This document shows, piece after piece, positions 345-59,927 of a stretch of 64,000 nucleotides of DNA. The position numbers and the translations under genes were made by a program. Each line of letters opens with the position of its first letter. Within the stretch, counting starts at the first letter, position 1. Location of the stretch: contig CAYOLI010000002.1 of NCBI GenBank assembly GCA_964404795.1, positions 7,766 through 71,765 on the forward strand, given 5' to 3'. The notes below the pieces were generated by a model. That model was not told the DNA's origin, made no database searches, and saw only the letters and a list, made by a program, of their open reading frames with translations. Source of the stretch: an uncultured Candidatus Saccharibacteria bacterium (lineage in GTDB: Bacteria > Patescibacteriota > Saccharimonadia > Saccharimonadales > 2-12-FULL-41-12).

Positions 345-1175
345 ATGAGGACAAATACCGGCCGTAGGTATGTAGTGCCACTTGTTTGGCTATTTTGCGT
401 TTTAACGAGCGTTATATTTTTGCAGCCAAAGGTAAATGCTGCAGATTCGTGGAATAGTGTAGGAACTCCTGGGTTCTCTAACCCTACGCAATTTTTAACA
501 TCCGCAATGGACGGAGACACTCCTTATGTAGCTTTTCGAGATTGGGGTAATGGATATAAACTTTCTGTAATGAAATACAATGGTAGCACGTGGGAGTTTG
601 TTGGTAGCCCCGCATTCTACTCAGGAGCTGATGTAGCAAATTCAATCGTTATTCACGCTGGTGTTCCTTATGTTGGCTTTGCAGACGGCAATAATGGAGG
701 CAAGGCGACAGTTATGCGCTTTAACGGCAGTAGCTGGGAGTTTGTCGGCAGCCCTGGTTTTTCAATTGGTGATGCTGGCTGGTTACAACTAAACATTGCA
801 AATAACGGGACTCCATACGTAGCTTTCTCCGAAGATATCGGGGTCAACGGTAGTGCGTCGGTAATGAAATATGATGGAGGTTCGTGGAGTTATGTTGGAG
901 CTCGCCAATTTACAGGACAGGGTGCAAATAATATTTCACTGGAATTTGATAATAATACACCTTACATATCCTTTTCAGATATAAGTATGACCCCTTATAG
1001 ATTATCGGTTATGCGCTTTAACGGCAGTAGCTGGGAGTTTGTCGGCAGCCCTAATTTCAACACACATAGTATTGATAATAGCCTTTACGGCCAAGCGATG
1101 CTTAAGATTAATAATCATACTCCTTATGTTGTTTTTAGAGATCTTAGCATGTACTCGGTTAGTGTTATGCGGTGA
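345..1175 (+). CDS. secreted repeat protein, 5' segment of a frameshifted gene (signal peptide plus repeated VM[KR][YF][ND]GS.WE[FY]VG units)
   Basis: N-terminal hydrophobic signal ending in VNA-AD. At least 5 copies of a ~50-aa unit (TPYVAF...SVMKYNGSTWEFVGSP). The ORF stops at TGA 1173-1175 in the middle of a repeat unit. Confidence 0.7.
   Translation: MRTNTGRRYVVPLVWLFCVLTSVIFLQPKVNAADSWNSVGTPGFSNPTQFLTSAMDGDTPYVAFRDWGNGYKLSVMKYNGSTWEFVGSPAFYSGADVANSIVIHAGVPYVGFADGNNGGKATVMRFNGSSWEFVGSPGFSIGDAGWLQLNIANNGTPYVAFSEDIGVNGSASVMKYDGGSWSYVGARQFTGQGANNISLEFDNNTPYISFSDISMTPYRLSVMRFNGSSWEFVGSPNFNTHSIDNSLYGQAMLKINNHTPYVVFRDLSMYSVSVMR
711..755 (+). repeat. 45-bp exact direct repeat, copy 1 (copy 2 at 1008..1052), inside the repeat-protein gene
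   Basis: gttatgcgctttaacggcagtagctgggagtttgtcggcagccct is identical at both positions in my manual comparison. Confidence 0.9.
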
Positions 1176-2106
1176 CGGCAGCAATTGGAATTTTCTAGGA
1201 GGTTCTGGAATAACTGGCTCAGATGTACAATTCGTTTCACTCGAATTTTACAATAACACACCCTATATTGCATTCGCTGATTATAGGCACGCTGGAAAAG
1301 CAACTGTACTAAGTTACGATGGAAGTAGTTGGGTCAGCGTAGGTACCTCCGGTTTCTCTGCTGGCTATTCGGCTTTCACGGAGATTATGTTTGACACCGC
1401 TGGCCACCCACATCTGGCATATGTCGATGATTCTTTGGCGAATAGAATCGTTGTGATGAAATTTGGGCCAGCGCCACCAGCGAATAACAGAACAGTGCCA
1501 AACGCTGAAGATGGAAAAGACATCCAAATCAATACACCGACCGGTACAACCATAACCTGTTCAACCGCTATAAAAGAGATCGCTTTGCCCGATCAAGATC
1601 CTGACTACCCATATCCTCTCGGGCTACTGGCTTATTGCTTTAATACCTCAGATGCCGACAATCAAGTAACTATTTTTTTTGAGACCGATCTAGATGCTGA
1701 TGAGCTAACCGCTAGAACCTACAACCCTTTTACGCACACCTTTTCGGACATAGACGATGTACAATATTCGGATTCGACTCTAAACGGACACCATGCGGTC
1801 AAAGTCGTTTACACAGTAACAGACAACACTGCCTTAGATATTAATGGTGCCGATAACAGCATCAATACAGTAATTGGCTTGGGTAAGCTAGCCGTTAGAA
1901 GAGCACATAGTACACCTGAAGGTTCAAGCTCTCAAAACTCTAGCCAACAAGGTAGCAACAGCGTTCGTTATCCAAACTCTGGTTTGTCTCCGAAAAATCC
2001 AATTCTGCAAATGCTTACATTAGGCATTGGTATAGCTTTAATTTCTCGCAGAATATTTCTTAAGAGAAAATTGAAACACAACTATATCCACCCTCGTAAT
2101 TTTTAA
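1162..2106 (+). CDS. 3' segment of the same repeat protein, with a C-terminal cell-wall-sorting-like signal (the start coordinate is nominal)
   Basis: In the +1 frame the repeat continues exactly from 1174 (DGSNWNFLGGSG...TPYIAFADYRHAGKATVLSYDGSSWVSVGTSGF). The C-terminus is YPNSG, then a hydrophobic stretch (ILQMLTLGIGIALI), then a basic tail (RRIFLKRKLK). The part of the tracked ORF upstream of ~1170 (from 1039) is out-of-frame read-through. Confidence 0.6.
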   Translation: MLCGDGSNWNFLGGSGITGSDVQFVSLEFYNNTPYIAFADYRHAGKATVLSYDGSSWVSVGTSGFSAGYSAFTEIMFDTAGHPHLAYVDDSLANRIVVMKFGPAPPANNRTVPNAEDGKDIQINTPTGTTITCSTAIKEIALPDQDPDYPYPLGLLAYCFNTSDADNQVTIFFETDLDADELTARTYNPFTHTFSDIDDVQYSDSTLNGHHAVKVVYTVTDNTALDINGADNSINTVIGLGKLAVRRAHSTPEGSSSQNSSQQGSNSVRYPNSGLSPKNPILQMLTLGIGIALISRRIFLKRKLKHNYIHPRNF

Positions 2107-2122
2107 AAAAATAGTAAAACAA

Positions 2123-2791
2123 ATGACAAGGAGACAAAAAGTAGTCAAGGTCAGCAAAGTAAACGAGACGATACTATGGCTCGCTGGAGTACTCTTGCTG
2201 GCTTTCGGGGCTTTTGGACTCTGGCAAAGATATTATCTAACCCATAAGCCGGCCAAACCATTATCTGACGAGGCAGTTACCTACTCTACGGATACGCCCG
2301 AGGAATCAAATGCCACAGAGGCATGCAGAGGGTACAATGCAGCCAAAGATCAACCAAGACAGATTGAGCTACAAAAAATAAACATAACCGGTTGCATCCA
2401 GAAAATTGGCACCGATCAGAACAATGCTGTAGCGGTCCCAACAAATGTGAATTTTGCTGGGTGGTTCGTAGATAGCCCAATCCCTGGCCAAGAAGGGGTA
2501 AGCTTAATAGATGGGCATGTGATAGGCCGCTATAGCAAAGCAATCTTTACAAGGTTAAACGAACTAAACGCTGGCGACATAGTACGCATACAGTACGGCG
2601 ATCATAGCTGGAAGTCGTTTGAAATAGTCCAAAAAGAAAGCTACACCAATGACAAAGCAGCGTCAGAAATGTTCTATAAATTGCCAGATGTAGGTAAGCA
2701 GCTCACACTCATTACCTGCACGGGTAAATGGTTACAGAACGACAAAACATACGATCATAGATTAATTGTTAGAACTAAGTTAGTCGACTAA
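2123..2791 (+). CDS. sortase family transpeptidase
   Basis: N-terminal TM anchor. Catalytic His (LIDGHV), Cys (QLTLITCTG, the TLxTC motif) and Arg (HRLIVR) are all present. Confidence 0.85.
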   Translation: MTRRQKVVKVSKVNETILWLAGVLLLAFGAFGLWQRYYLTHKPAKPLSDEAVTYSTDTPEESNATEACRGYNAAKDQPRQIELQKINITGCIQKIGTDQNNAVAVPTNVNFAGWFVDSPIPGQEGVSLIDGHVIGRYSKAIFTRLNELNAGDIVRIQYGDHSWKSFEIVQKESYTNDKAASEMFYKLPDVGKQLTLITCTGKWLQNDKTYDHRLIVRTKLVD

Positions 2792-2836
2792 AACAAATAT
2801 TCATTGTGTAATCATGGTATTATTAGCATAATTAAT

Positions 2837-3406
2837 ATGAAAGTAACACCGAAAATTCTTGATGCTGTTAAAATCGCCACTAGAGCCCATAGACATCAAA
2901 ACCGAAAAGCAACCGATACGCCCTACATAGTGCACCCCTATAGCGTGATGTTAATCGCATCACAAGTAACAGACGACGAGGACACCCTAATCGCTTGCCT
3001 ATTTCACGACATTCTCGAAGATGTCTCGGCAGAATATCCCGAATCCAAAATGCTGGATGAATTCGGCGACAGTGTAGTAACTATTGTTAAGGGTGTGACA
3101 AAGGACGACTCAATACTTGGCTGGCAGCCGCGATCGGAAGCGTACCTTGCAACCCTCAAAAACATAGCTCCTGATGAATCAGTCATTGTTGCTGCCGCTG
3201 ACAAGATCCATAACTTAACTACTATTATCGAAGATTATCCCAAGCAAGGCGAGAATTTTTGGAACCGGTTTGGCTCAGGACAGTCACAGCAGATTTGGTT
3301 TTACCAACAATCATTAGAGGTGGTAAAACAACGAATTCCTGATTTACCTCTGGTTGTCTGGCTTGAAAATTTGTTAGGTGAACTAAACAGACTGGTAGCC
3401 AAATAA
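2837..3406 (+). CDS. HD-domain phosphohydrolase (RelA/SpoT-type ppGpp-hydrolase-like HD_4)
   Basis: HRHQNRK...PYIVHP...LFHDILEDV is an HD motif pattern. ATG at 2837 is preferred over the longer tracked ORF starting at 2804. Confidence 0.7.
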   Translation: MKVTPKILDAVKIATRAHRHQNRKATDTPYIVHPYSVMLIASQVTDDEDTLIACLFHDILEDVSAEYPESKMLDEFGDSVVTIVKGVTKDDSILGWQPRSEAYLATLKNIAPDESVIVAAADKIHNLTTIIEDYPKQGENFWNRFGSGQSQQIWFYQQSLEVVKQRIPDLPLVVWLENLLGELNRLVAK

Positions 3407-57092: not shown

Positions 57093-57163
57093 CTAAATTA
57101 TTATAAAAATCTCTTATGCTATACTGCAAGATAATAAATTATTAATAAGATAAAGAGGTGGTA

Positions 57164-57748
57164 ATGAAGATTAATCAAAAAGGATTTAGTGTAGTAGAAC
57201 TGCTACTGGTAATAATTACCGTTACCCTGGTAGTAGGTGTTGGCTTTTATGTGTACAATTCTGTAAACAGCAAAAAGGGTGCTCAACAAAAATCAGATAA
57301 CCCACAAAAAACCCAAGAGGAAAAACCAAAGTTACAAAAAACAAAGACAACGTTTGACTTTGACGGATTAAAGGTTGAGGTCCCTCAAGATGGCTTGAAG
57401 GGTCTACTTTACGCTAAAGACACCGACCCCAACAGCAAAAACTCTTCGTACAACGTAAATAATACCGAATTTAATAGTATCGCAGCAAAATGCACTGATA
57501 CTAAACCCCAAGCTGTATCAATACACGCCGAACGTGGCCGATACCCAGGAGAGGGCAACGAAGGAATGAATGGTCTACTAAAACAGTTTAACAACTATTA
57601 CATAACGTACTCAGACGGAGGCCTTTACGGGAATATAGGGTGTAGCGACATTTTAGGGGAAACTAAATTCAATCAATTGTTTGATATTCAAAAACAAATC
57701 ACAGAGCAATTAAAAAACGCATTCGCGAACTCTCAAGAAGTTAATTAG
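57164..57748 (+). CDS. type IV pilin-like protein (prepilin N-terminal cleavage/methylation motif)
   Basis: MKINQKG|FSVVELLLVIITVTLVVGVGFYVY is a G-F-S-x-x-E class III signal. GAGGTGG SD before the ATG at 57164. Confidence 0.75.
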   Translation: MKINQKGFSVVELLLVIITVTLVVGVGFYVYNSVNSKKGAQQKSDNPQKTQEEKPKLQKTKTTFDFDGLKVEVPQDGLKGLLYAKDTDPNSKNSSYNVNNTEFNSIAAKCTDTKPQAVSIHAERGRYPGEGNEGMNGLLKQFNNYYITYSDGGLYGNIGCSDILGETKFNQLFDIQKQITEQLKNAFANSQEVN

Positions 57749-57769
57749 GACTCACATCAGTGTTATACG

Positions 57770-57844
57770 TGGTGATCGCACGGGGAATCGAACCCCGATT
57801 GCCAGGATGAGAACCTGGTGTCCTAACCGTTAGACGATGCGACC
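57770..57844 (-). tRNA. tRNA-Glu (anticodon CUC), CCA encoded
   Basis: Reverse complement GGTCGCATCGTCTAACGGTTAGGACACCAGGTTCTCATCCTGGCAATCGGGGTTCGATTCCCCGTGCGATCACCA folds as a 75-nt cloverleaf. A TAAAAT -10 box lies 12 nt upstream. Confidence 0.9.
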
Positions 57845-57976
57845 CTAACGAGATAATTTTACTACACATAGGGTTCGATTCGGAATCGACCTACCTCCGG
57901 CAGGCCCGAAACTTCCCGATTGAAAAGCAAGTTTTCATCGGAAGATTTCCTTGCAAAACGCCACAGGCGTTTTTCA

Positions 57977-58071
57977 CCCGATTGCCAGGATGAGAACCTG
58001 GTGTCCTAACCGCCTGTACGATGCGACCCTAACGAGATAATTTTACTACATAAAGGGTTCGATTCGGAATC
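57977..58071 (-). repeat. tandem partial duplicate of the tRNA-Glu promoter plus the 5' 52 nt of the gene (pseudo-tRNA 57977..58028); the master copy is 57794..57887
   Basis: A ~95-bp repeat with a 183/184-bp period. It is identical apart from a clustered change in the D-arm (tctaacgg -> tacaggcgg) and two changes in the promoter region. The copy lacks the T-arm and the 3' acceptor. Confidence 0.85.
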
Positions 58072-58190
58072 TATCTAGTATCAAACAAATTACATTCTAT
58101 ACCTAGCACACTCCACTAAAAAATAAACCCGTTAGCTTATTGCTCACATCTATAGGAGCATAAGCATTAACAAAGTATACTAATTGTAGA

Positions 58191-59927
58191 ATGGAAACAA
58201 TTGATAAACGTTGGTATACGGGTTATTCGTGGTACATCACCGTTTTTACCCTCATAATTGCAGTTCTGTCTTTACTTGGAATATTCTCAGATCAATTTAC
58301 GCAAATTGCCAAGGACTGGGGACTTGGAGCAACAACTTTGGTAATTGCCATTTGTACCTTAATTTTCCGATTTTCGTATTTTGAGATTGCCAAAAATAAG
58401 AAAAGCATCGAACTCAATATTCTGACCTTCTTATACGCAGTTTTCTATGCGATTATGGTAATTAATCTGATCCACCTTACTGGCTGGCTCCATTCTTGGT
58501 ATCTAATACTTTTTGCACAAATTATCGCCTTTGCAGGATTTTTTGGTATTTTTACTGTTTTTGGTACAGCTCTTATTGTAACTATCTATCTAATCTTGGC
58601 TATACCGGAAGCGAGTACAAATCAAGAGCTAAAAAACCCCTTAGTTATCGGTCTATTTGGTGGGGCATACTTGTTGTGTCTGGCGAGTTATTTTTTTTGG
58701 AAAATATTCTACATCGATGTTGAAAATCAACAAATAAATAAGCTTAGCGGTATGTTAAAAAGTAACCGACAACAATCGGAAATCTTGATTCAATCAATTG
58801 CTGATGGAGTCATCGTTACAGATACTACAGGGACTATTACACTAATGAACCCTGCGGCTTTTGAATTGACCAAATGGCCTGTAGACGAGGCACTCGGTAT
58901 TGATGTGCGTTTAGTTGTTAAGCTAGCTCAAGAAGACGGGAAGCCATTGGAGGAAGGCCAAGATCTATACGCAAGCGTATTTAATCAGAAAAAAAGTGTT
59001 GAAGAGACAATGAGTTTGGTAGATCGGGAGAAAAAACAAAAAATCGTATCGATTGTTATTTCTCCAATAATTTTGCCGAAATCCCAGGAGTTGGTTGGAT
59101 CAGTTGCAGTACTTAGAGACGTTAGCGTAGCAAAACAAGTCGAAAAACAGCGTGCCGATTTTATTAGTACAGCCAGCCATGAAATGCGCACGCCAGTAGC
59201 CGCGATTGAGGGGTACTTGGCTCTAGCTCTAAACGATCGAGTCAGTAAAATCGACCTTAAAGCTCGTGGCTATCTGGAAAAAGCCCACGAGAGCACCCAA
59301 CACCTAGGTAAGCTATTTCAAGACCTACTTACCAGCGCAAAAGCCGAAGACGGACGATTAAGTAGCAACCCGATAGTTGTTAATATGAATGATTTTATGG
59401 ATAAAATCGCAGAAGATTTAAGATTTATCACCCAAAAAAAACACCTGCGTATGGAATACATTGTAAGCAACCATGAAACTGCCGGTATGATTGATGCCAG
59501 CAACAAACGAGAAGTCAGGCCACTTTACTATGCACATATTGATCCAGACCGTTTCAGAGAGGTTGTAACTAACGTTTTTGACAATGCAGTCAAATATACC
59601 GAGGAAGGCGCCATTACGCTCTCGATCACTGGTAACGATGACGTTGTGCAAGTCAGTGTTGCCGATACAGGCCCTGGCATACCAAGCGAAGATTTACCTC
59701 ATCTGTTTCAAAAATTTTATAGAGTCGATAACTCGGCAACACGGTCGATTGGCGGTACCGGTTTAGGGCTATTCATTTGTAAAAAAATTGTCGAGCTTTA
59801 CGGTGGTCGTATTTGGGCAGAAAGTACAATAGGTAAGGGAACAACCTTTTATATTAATATCCCTCGAATTTCTGCGTCTAGAGCAGCCCAGCTACAACTT
59901 AATGAAAAACCTATTCCTCAAGCATAA
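58191..59927 (+). CDS. sensor histidine kinase (multi-TM N-terminal domain, PAS, HisKA, HATPase_c)
   Basis: ~6 TM helices; PAS (IADGVIVTDTTGTITLMNPAA); H-box STASHEMRTPVA; DTGPGI; GTGLGLFICK. Confidence 0.9.
   Translation: METIDKRWYTGYSWYITVFTLIIAVLSLLGIFSDQFTQIAKDWGLGATTLVIAICTLIFRFSYFEIAKNKKSIELNILTFLYAVFYAIMVINLIHLTGWLHSWYLILFAQIIAFAGFFGIFTVFGTALIVTIYLILAIPEASTNQELKNPLVIGLFGGAYLLCLASYFFWKIFYIDVENQQINKLSGMLKSNRQQSEILIQSIADGVIVTDTTGTITLMNPAAFELTKWPVDEALGIDVRLVVKLAQEDGKPLEEGQDLYASVFNQKKSVEETMSLVDREKKQKIVSIVISPIILPKSQELVGSVAVLRDVSVAKQVEKQRADFISTASHEMRTPVAAIEGYLALALNDRVSKIDLKARGYLEKAHESTQHLGKLFQDLLTSAKAEDGRLSSNPIVVNMNDFMDKIAEDLRFITQKKHLRMEYIVSNHETAGMIDASNKREVRPLYYAHIDPDRFREVVTNVFDNAVKYTEEGAITLSITGNDDVVQVSVADTGPGIPSEDLPHLFQKFYRVDNSATRSIGGTGLGLFICKKIVELYGGRIWAESTIGKGTTFYINIPRISASRAAQLQLNEKPIPQA

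Follow-up and report, generated by a model that had tools for sequence, protein, structure and literature searches.

The window analyzed here is a 64,000-nucleotide (64-kb) stretch of contig CAYOLI010000002.1 from an uncultured Candidatus Saccharibacteria bacterium. Its minus strand carries an intact gene for tRNA-Glu(CUC), one of three tRNAs in the window, which ARAGORN and the Rfam tRNA model return as a single call (Table 1), and, upstream of it, a displaced copy of the 5' part of the same gene together with promoter-like DNA. A repeat search resolved this duplication into two blocks, with 57794-57829 matching 57977-58012 at 36 of 36 positions and 57834-57893 matching 58018-58077 at 93% over 60 nt. 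The spacing of 183/184 bp agrees with the 183 bp reported in an initial annotation of this DNA, and 83 bp separate the repeats. Each repeat comprises tRNA-Glu nucleotides 1-52 and 49 nt of upstream DNA, including the TAAAAT -10-like box that the annotation had placed in both copies. The upstream copy lacks the T-loop and the 3' strands of the T-stem and acceptor stem; it ends after CAATCGGG, 4 nt inside the 5' strand of the T-stem and not, as first thought, exactly at the start of that stem. Neither ARAGORN nor Rfam calls a tRNA at this partial copy. The motif CCCGATTG is found, as already noticed, at 57794, 57915 and 57977, and has six copies in the window versus about one expected.

The arrangement does not stem from assembly. 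Positions 57700-58200 are identical, with 0 mismatches, in seven contigs (L001-L005, L007 and L013) that derive from different samples and different assemblers, and an artefact can be ruled out given the same sequence in at least seven independent assemblies. Two megahit contigs of the same species, L006 and L008, start at the window equivalents of 57995 and 58142, thus breaking within or just past the upstream repeat copy, which would be expected if the repeat confuses assembly graphs.

The locus is a "solo" unit, and the spacer beside the tRNA-Glu half-copy is one copy, of a family of structured elements, here called module M, that has been unannotated so far. Read along the minus strand, the locus consists of the distal promoter-like region, tRNA-Glu nucleotides 1-52, M, a T-loop remnant, an inverted T-loop segment, the proximal promoter-like region and the intact tRNA-Glu gene, which begins 132 nt downstream of the junction between CAATCGGG and TGAA. 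The inverted segment is complementary to the T-loop remnant as well as to the CGGG that precedes the module, and equivalent antisense T-loop segments follow the module in other units of this kind. A weak resemblance to the 3' end of hairpin P4 of the module extends in the alignment to about 58077. With the promoter and the inverted T-loop included, the repeat measures about 100 nt, which is unusual for the family.

Table 1. Features of the tRNA-Glu locus and positions of the other module types.
Feature	Position	Strand	Basis or remarks
tRNA-Glu(CUC), intact, CCA encoded	57770..57844	-	ARAGORN; Rfam tRNA model, 60.8 bits; single-copy ortholog in relatives
Proximal leader with putative promoter	57845..57870	-	-10-like box TAAAAT at 57856-57861
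Inverted copy of T-loop and T-stem (GAATCGAACCC)	57871..57881	-	11 of 11 complementary to 57785-57795
T-loop remnant TCGATTCC, straight after the module	57882..57889	-	one U shorter than the gene's TTCGATTCC
Module M, about 88 nt	57889..57976	-	covariance model R1; family alignment A3; covariation; single-sequence folds
M, opening UGAA		-	
M, hairpin P2	57952-57976	-	core hairpin 57955-57973
M, GCAAGG		-	follows P2
M, hairpin P3	57908-57949	-	
M, GGG		-	precedes P4
M, hairpin P4	57889-57905	-	
Displaced tRNA-Glu 5' fragment, nt 1-52	57977..58028	-	repeats and alignment with relatives; acceptor 5' strand, altered D-arm, anticodon arm, variable loop, T-stem CGGG
Distal leader copy	58029..58077	-	93% repeat over 60 nt; -10-like box TAAAAT 58040-58045; inverted T-loop copy 58055-58065; GATTCC remnant 58066-58071
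Type B module	L047 2069-2718; L052 2574-2699; L059 1537-1662; plus metagenome loci		
Type C module	L033 1-420; L077 2600-2760; L043 2360-2700; L087 2480-2640; L097 2530-2640		

Copies of M were gathered from Saccharibacteria genomes, assigned by the names of their genome records, and from metagenome contigs, which were counted without taxonomic placement; a metagenome scan with a P2-based pattern gave at least 120 contigs. Among the matches listed, 84 distinct type-A copies were recognized, all 91-98 nt long when flanks are included except for two that measure 78 and 100 nt, and 81 of these 84 form alignment A3, from which covariance model R1 was built. The family shares the layout UGAG-P2-GCAAGG-P3-GGG-P4, about 87 nt with three hairpins: P2 has 7-8 bp and an NGU loop, P3 is long and P4 is G+C-rich. 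The adjoining tRNA fragment ends in G and is followed by UGAG, and units of the T-loop type resume the rest of the T-loop after P4. The window copy is recognized by the independently built family model: R1 aligns to 57886-57980 on the minus strand over model positions 1-94 with 92.6 bits and E=2e-20, and with filters off it finds no further copy in the 64-kb window at E<0.1.

The fold is supported by strong covariation. RNAalifold identified compensatory changes in 27 of 34 predicted pairs. Standard pairs fill 94.8% of the cells, a value that none of 500 shuffled alignments reaches; shuffling gives 73.0%, and sliding the partners against each other gives about 43%. Changes on both sides of a pair affect 565 cells as opposed to 153 in the shuffles. 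One pair in P4 is G·U in 77 of the 81 aligned copies, and the fold is therefore strand-specific, lies on the tRNA-sense strand and has the character of an RNA structure. GCAAGG is invariant after P2 in all 81 aligned copies and the P2 stem itself co-varies, while CAAUCG in P3 belongs to the family consensus and is not a tRNA copy. This fold is probably under selection, most likely because a trans-acting factor uses it to propagate or maintain the element. Searches with Rfam 15 found only tRNA, whether over the whole window at the gathering threshold, in the region at E<=10 or in eight module-bearing loci at E<=1. A full-text literature search found no description of the module, its only matches being group I introns in Patescibacteria tRNA genes and an archaeal model of tRNA disruption. 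As far as searched, M is thus an undescribed, widespread structured element.

These results change the reading of the hairpins in the spacer. The one formed by AAAACGCC and GGCGTTTT around TGT (-9.8 kcal/mol) exists as initially annotated, but it is the core of P2 and not a terminator; a simple terminator can be ruled out, with no call at 57950-57976 on either strand, no U-tract outside the stem and GCAAGG following it. The second hairpin is also present and extends over the whole of P3 (-15.2 kcal/mol); the third, P4, had been missed. Because the first hairpin is P2, the discrete RNA of about 75 nt that had been proposed is not predicted: a transcript from the distal promoter should read through the ~88-nt module, then through another hairpin and the proximal promoter, and continue into the full tRNA.

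A further difference between the copies lies in the D-arm, where the clustered change reported earlier, TCTAACGG to TACAGGCGG at 58010-58018, interrupts the two blocks of identity. Since all relatives in the alignment have TCTAACGG, the upstream copy carries the derived state. The new bases ACAGGCG do have the 7-nt complementarity to CGCCTGT that had been pointed out, and this target corresponds to the 5' strand and loop of P2. One may consider an attenuator, in which the duplicated promoter drives an RNA resembling a tRNA 5' half that ends at the hairpin, and pairing between the D-arm and this hairpin controls read-through into tRNA-Glu. The -10-like box is duplicated intact, and the minimum-free-energy fold of the leader indeed pairs ACAGGCG with CGCCUGU in place of the local hairpin; a random 9-mer at the D-arm position would reach 7-nt complementarity in only about 1% of trials. 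However, the stability of that fold is unremarkable (z-score -0.74), the hairpin has its U's inside the stem and, as P2, is a family helix, and the change is seen in a single near-clonal species. Nor does the family share the alternative pairing, with 11 other T-loop-type units reaching just 4-6 nt and the 7-nt match being unique to the window. We therefore regard regulation by attenuation as very unlikely. Given that the complementarity is absent from other units and arises by chance in about 1% of trials, the cluster probably arose as one templated mutation, by template switching onto neighboring P2, in a copy that is free to change.

Neutral local duplication, by slippage or unequal crossover between CCCGATTG microhomologies with fortuitous hairpins, would account for the motif standing at both repeat starts and within the spacer, and for a structure confined to one species among those sampled. 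We find it hardly credible. The layout of the locus is B-C-B and not the B-C-B-C of a tandem duplication, and the spacer scores high with the model of a family that counts 84 distinct copies, agreeing with it down to the consensus CAAUCG of P3. These two facts rule out a simple tandem duplication. Replication slippage, which the initial annotation had offered, also fails to explain the same junction architecture at many different tRNAs in unrelated contigs.

What do copies of M elsewhere reveal about the unit in the window? Among the matches listed, roughly 140 copies were located, of which 47 precede an intact tRNA gene on the same strand by 120-350 nt (typically 120-180), 42 follow such a gene at 30-170 nt (mostly 70-90) and six stand between two tRNAs; most of the others border the end of a contig or are accidental hits of the pattern within coding sequence. 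M has the strand of the tRNA nearly always, and only three of the ~140 copies have just an opposite-strand tRNA nearby. The flanked tRNAs are specific for Glu, Gln, Arg, Val, Lys, Leu, Ser, Gly, Pro, Phe, Trp, Met, Ile, His and Ala. M sits at D-, anticodon- or T-loop positions of a partial copy next to an intact gene for the same tRNA, with junctions at tRNA nucleotides 17, 22-25, 37-39 and 50-54, or 62-64 in long-arm tRNAs, and the base before it is G in 42 of 42 distinct junctions. The window copy conforms to this pattern: its CAATCGGG/TGAA junction follows nucleotide 52 with a G before the module, and the intact gene lies on the same strand.

Two types of unit can be distinguished by the side on which the partial copy lies. 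The 5'-type has its own -10-like box, tRNA nucleotides 1 to the junction, M, the T-loop remnant, an inverted T-loop, a second -10-like box and the intact tRNA. Such boxes precede both the partial copy and the full gene in 30 related units, and the two promoter regions are usually unrelated; the repeat is usually the tRNA part alone, beginning 0-7 nt before +1, and in many units the two copies match without exception (54/54, 64/64 and 57/57). The 3'-type begins with the intact tRNA and its terminator, followed by an inverted copy of the variable loop and T-arm, a direct copy of the T-stem 5' strand, M and the sequence from the T-loop to CCA; in L104 the terminator is duplicated too. The module copies are followed by GGTCGA where the gene has GGTTCGA, also beside other tRNAs, and are one nucleotide short of the intact loop. 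Removal of M in silico, at all nearby junction offsets, left an ARAGORN-detectable tRNA in only 2 of 84 copies, which rules out an intron of an intact tRNA gene; in the window, neither a T-stem 3' strand nor an acceptor 3' strand follows M. As a separate observation, the terminators after tRNA genes in L055, L104, L112, L114, L116, L131 and L171 are long palindromes, whose A- and T-tracts extend so that the CCA end of the tRNA pairs with a downstream TGG (e.g., CCAAGAAAAGAGTCCCA-TTTT-TGGGACTCTTTTCTTGG).

Among related genomes the unit is sporadic. When every locus was compared with itself, partial duplicates of tRNA-Glu came to light in other species too, to one side or the other of the gene and at a spacing of ~145-195 bp, and R1 places M beside about 10 of 84 Saccharibacteria tRNA-Glu/kinase loci. 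The closest available relatives, with 71%, 66% and lower identity in the adjoining kinase, possess just one tRNA-Glu, at some 100 nt from the start of the kinase gene, without duplication and without M. The loci L009, L014, L016 and L018, with one tRNA-Glu and no unit, constitute a presence/absence difference among related genomes. With respect to conservation, which the initial annotation had named as a check, the duplication is absent from the nearest relatives, while the hairpin module is conserved with covariation in the family. In L017 (positions 1-290), about 110 extra base pairs flanked by ATGAGACCAAAT and ATGAGACCCAAT lie between the tRNA-Glu 5' end and the promoter, and the contig breaks within the tRNA; this DNA may represent another kind of small insertion that duplicated its target.

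The family also includes more elaborate arrangements. In some units, copies of M are nested at the GGG before P4, and nested, tandem-array and cargo versions occur in L047, L122 and L204, in L100 with two open reading frames (ORFs) and in L218 with single-gene units; cargo-bearing units measure 0.8-1.9 kb. In L100 (reverse strand, ~1130-3100) the two ORFs lie between tRNA-Lys and a distal M with the tRNA 3' end, and by eye they resemble an alpha/beta hydrolase (237 aa) and a racemase (229 aa). Positions 1-1050 of L218 consist of cassette-like repeats, each closed by M and a tRNA-Lys 3' end, and within one of them lies a 162-aa ORF whose HxTxx motifs recall those of 2H phosphoesterases. M is not restricted to tRNAs: in L107, L113, L146, L148 and L206 it is found in the loop of a conserved non-tRNA hairpin (AAAAAGAGCCTACGGAGGGGGTGGGCACCGCCGTAGGCTC), the 5' arm of which is duplicated as at tRNAs. 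A conserved stretch containing CACCCTTCAACCCACC follows this hairpin.

Two further modules occupy comparable sites (Table 1). Type B, represented by 26 copies mostly at D-loop junctions, has UGAG-P2-GCAAGG in common with M and continues with CCGGAAGC...GAGGCGGGGTCG...GTGAC; in L047, one tRNA-Glu pseudo-copy holds type B in its D-loop and type A in its T-loop. Type C (...CGAACCCnGGGTTCG...GCCACGCGCAGAAGYTTRCTTCGAGCATG...) is unrelated to M in sequence and is found in the T-loop of 3'-side partial copies of tRNA-Glu, with three tandem 154-bp units in L033.

We propose, with intermediate confidence, that M is a non-autonomous mobile or recombining insertion module. The mobile-element scar that the initial annotation had listed as an alternative comes closest to the evidence; the feature itself is real, and the mechanism put forward for it is mostly wrong. 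In the proposed sequence of events, M would have entered the T-loop position of tRNA-Glu in the lineage of this species, displacing the resident older promoter and tRNA 5' part upstream, where they became fused to M, and the promoter and tRNA nucleotides 1-52 carried by the unit would have kept the tRNA-Glu gene intact. The long, 100-nt repeat would be best accounted for by a second unit, or an unequal crossover in an array of units, with subsequent loss of the distal M; L204 shows such a two-unit array. Judging from its -10-like box, the upstream promoter-like copy probably transcribes a chimera of the tRNA 5' part, M and the hairpin, which would run on into the tRNA and whose chimeric part would be freed by RNase P as a long leader. 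Mobility may depend on a trans-acting recombinase that recognizes the fold of M, or on an RNA-templated step. The repeat boundaries coincide with tRNA ends, which fits an RNA-templated copy or plain selection for an intact gene.

Several observations weigh against an insertion module. In 120 loci, M has no linked gene for a recombinase, reverse transcriptase or HUH protein, nor is there one within 6 kb at the window locus, and all-against-all clustering of the 999 ORFs within 3 kb of modules revealed no recurrent mobility protein family. No pair of empty and filled sites was found among very close relatives; every assembly of the species has the unit, and the next relative is just 71% identical in the neighboring kinase. 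That near-perfect repeats stand beside M sequences of great diversity requires either recent events or gene conversion. In addition, the fold with its fixed G·U pair, the promoters before partial copies and the preservation of an intact M beside a decayed tRNA remnant in L055 would fit a host-beneficial RNA as well.

It is conceivable, though we consider it doubtful, that M is such a structured RNA domain, deliberately expressed by the host in fusion with part of a tRNA. Expression and defined ends would come from the tRNA promoter and from the RNase P or CCA-end processing signals of the fragment, and the partial copies would be functional parts of the unit and not scars. M could then contribute to the processing or quality control of tRNAs, or act as a decoy of an enzyme binding to the elbow of tRNA. 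The D-loop and T-loop, where M is inserted, are the parts that form this elbow; the flanking antisense segments could close a P1 helix around M, and the strong covariation, the -10-like boxes before partial copies and the lack of a linked mobility gene point in the same direction, as does L055. Yet M is patchy, present at ~10 of 84 orthologous loci and once in a 64-kb window that has three tRNAs, and it joins almost any tRNA at several positions, contrary to one specific partner. Its nesting, arrays and cargo units resemble the behavior of an element, and it also occurs in a non-tRNA hairpin.

Alternatively, the unit could be the remnant attachment site of a larger integrative element (a prophage, integrative plasmid or island) that was later deleted, with M as part of the element's arm, e.g., a small RNA encoded next to attP. 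Repeats confined to the tRNA part are what one would expect if the element must restore the gene, 3'-type units have the classical duplication from the T-loop to CCA, and cargo-bearing versions reach 0.8-1.9 kb. A displaced tRNA 5' fragment beside a recombinase-encoding element provides an archaeal precedent (PMC3293823). Nevertheless, we judge this origin improbable. Integration scars normally duplicate the tRNA 3' end, as had been correctly remarked, and the repeat in the window consists of nucleotides 1-52 and the 49 nt upstream. No integrase lies inside the element, the repeats being just 83 bp apart, none was found in or near any unit examined, and no recombinase recurs near 120 other units. 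Unit size is stereotyped at ~145-195 bp over unrelated loci, unlike random deletion remnants, and M splits the T-stem 5' strand from the T-loop, where the core site of a recombinase must be contiguous. The viral contigs scanned contain no exact match to the tRNA 5' part, the spacer or the module pattern; blastn found no match to a consensus-like M copy in phage and plasmid records, and phage matches to the locus are confined to phage tRNA-Glu genes.

Returning to an insertion module, we entertain a more specific and tentative version, in which M is the RNA or single-stranded DNA part of a new type of bacterial mobile element that is aimed at G-rich positions in structured loops, namely the D-, anticodon- and T-loops of tRNAs and the loops of other hairpins, and inserts by copying part of its target. 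The duplication would span the distance from the insertion point to the end of the target's transcript. Such a process would explain repeats that begin close to the 5' end of the tRNA or finish at CCA or at the terminator, as well as the presence of inverted T-arm copies. If true, this would represent RNA-templated or RNA-guided insertion in bacteria in which group II introns are reportedly missing (PMC13011429).

How does M compare with known systems? Its nearest analogues are integrative elements at tRNA genes and their miniature derivatives. Integrative elements recombine within tRNA genes and leave a duplicated tRNA segment, and miniature derivatives without integrase are of the cis-mobilizable element (CIME) type. 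M units likewise have a tRNA part directly repeated around foreign DNA, with the gene intact and the repeat usually limited to the tRNA part, and they accumulate in tandem and carry cargo. In contrast to these elements, the window unit and 45 others duplicate the 5' part and supply a promoter, the units examined have no integrase, and the foreign DNA is a ~87-nt module with RNA-type covariation located inside the T-arm, or in the D- or anticodon loop. Repetitive extragenic palindromic (REP) sequences, REPINs and other palindromic elements derived from IS200/IS605 are moved in trans by HUH transposases. Like REP/REPIN, M is small, non-autonomous, multi-copy and made of strand-specific hairpins with a short motif alongside (UGAG; GTAG in REP), and no transposase is linked to it near the modules, with no genome-wide search for RAYT (REP-associated tyrosine transposase) or TnpA made. 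REP/REPIN, however, do not duplicate tens of target nucleotides, are not tied to tRNA loops and have no three-hairpin fold with conserved junction nucleotides. By the standards of REPINs and miniature inverted-repeat transposable elements, the duplication in M units covers 17-64 nt of tRNA and not 2-10 bp, and the consensus ends GGTGAG...GTGACC are inverted-repeat-like at just 4 of 6 positions. The attC site of integrons is a single imperfect hairpin, and cassette arrays go with an integrase and attI. As in attC, structure is kept in M while sequence varies, folding occurs on one strand, and arrays of short or single-gene units are bounded by a structured site (L218 and L100); unlike attC, M has three hairpins and is fused to tRNA fragments, and no integron integrase or attI is found at M units, a genome-scale integrase search not having been made.

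Two published cases involve tRNA genes directly. In the archaeon Caldiarchaeum subterraneum, a mobile element disrupts a tRNA gene (Sugahara et al. 2012, PMC3293823), and, as in the window, inserted DNA separates the functional gene from a tRNA 5' fragment located upstream. The archaeal insert differs in being 1.8 kb long and encoding a recombinase, and the case is tied to archaeal introns cut by the splicing endonuclease, with no conserved small structured module described (PMC3293823). The group I introns present in Patescibacteria tRNA genes are self-splicing, exceed 200 nt and lie in the anticodon loop of otherwise intact genes (2026, PMC13011429). They share with M the host group and the nature of a structured, RNA-type insertion in tRNA genes that is missed by standard annotation. 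M is unrelated to them (PMC13011429): it is ~87 nt long, its removal restores a tRNA in 2 of 84 cases only, and a group I intron model gave no match at E<=10 in the window region or at E<=1 in eight loci.

The surroundings of the locus contain genes for GluRS, a DUF3048 protein, two kinase/response-regulator pairs, a pseudouridine synthase (PseudoU_synth_2 and S4 domain), an EngA-type GTPase and a pilin-like ORF. Top homologues of the adjoining histidine kinase include Candidatus Saccharibacteria proteins. In about 55 of 80 Saccharibacteria loci collected via the kinase, tRNA-Glu(CUC) is divergent from the kinase gene, an arrangement that is, judging from this recurrence, old. Directly upstream of the kinase start, the motif (G)GTAGCATAAGC, with TATACTAA about 10 nt further on, is kept in all relatives (window 58152-58185; L009 4950-4995; upstream of the kinase start in L014, L016, L017 and L018), and it may be a kinase promoter or operator. 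On the 3' side of tRNA-Glu, the gene differs between the loci of relatives. In the window, a 196-aa ORF (57158-57748, plus strand) lies there, between the response regulator gene and the tRNA 3' end; its N-terminus is type IV prepilin-like (MKINQKGFSVVELLLVIITV...), it has no significant Pfam match, and it is missing from the syntenic locus of the nearest relative, L009. The 99%-identical strain L013 differs from the window by 12 substitutions within 22 bp (59729-59750), near the 3' end of the kinase gene, and by just three differences in the remaining 7.7 kb, a cluster that looks like a short recombination or templated tract.

M is a well-supported new RNA motif, with 84 copies, 27 covarying pairs and a calibrated model with which it can be searched, and it lends itself to probing and direct testing. 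It accounts for the pseudo-fragments of tRNAs, and for the contigs broken at tRNA loci, that assemblies of these organisms contain. If our interpretation is correct, small-genome Patescibacteria carry abundant, unannotated structured elements that remodel tRNA loci, giving rise to half-genes of tRNAs that have promoters of their own, to essential tRNAs with promoters in tandem, and to cassette-like arrays. Such elements would bear on the splitting and fragmentation of tRNA genes, a debate so far based mainly on Archaea, and they raise the question of what moves DNA in lineages with very few recognizable mobile-element genes.

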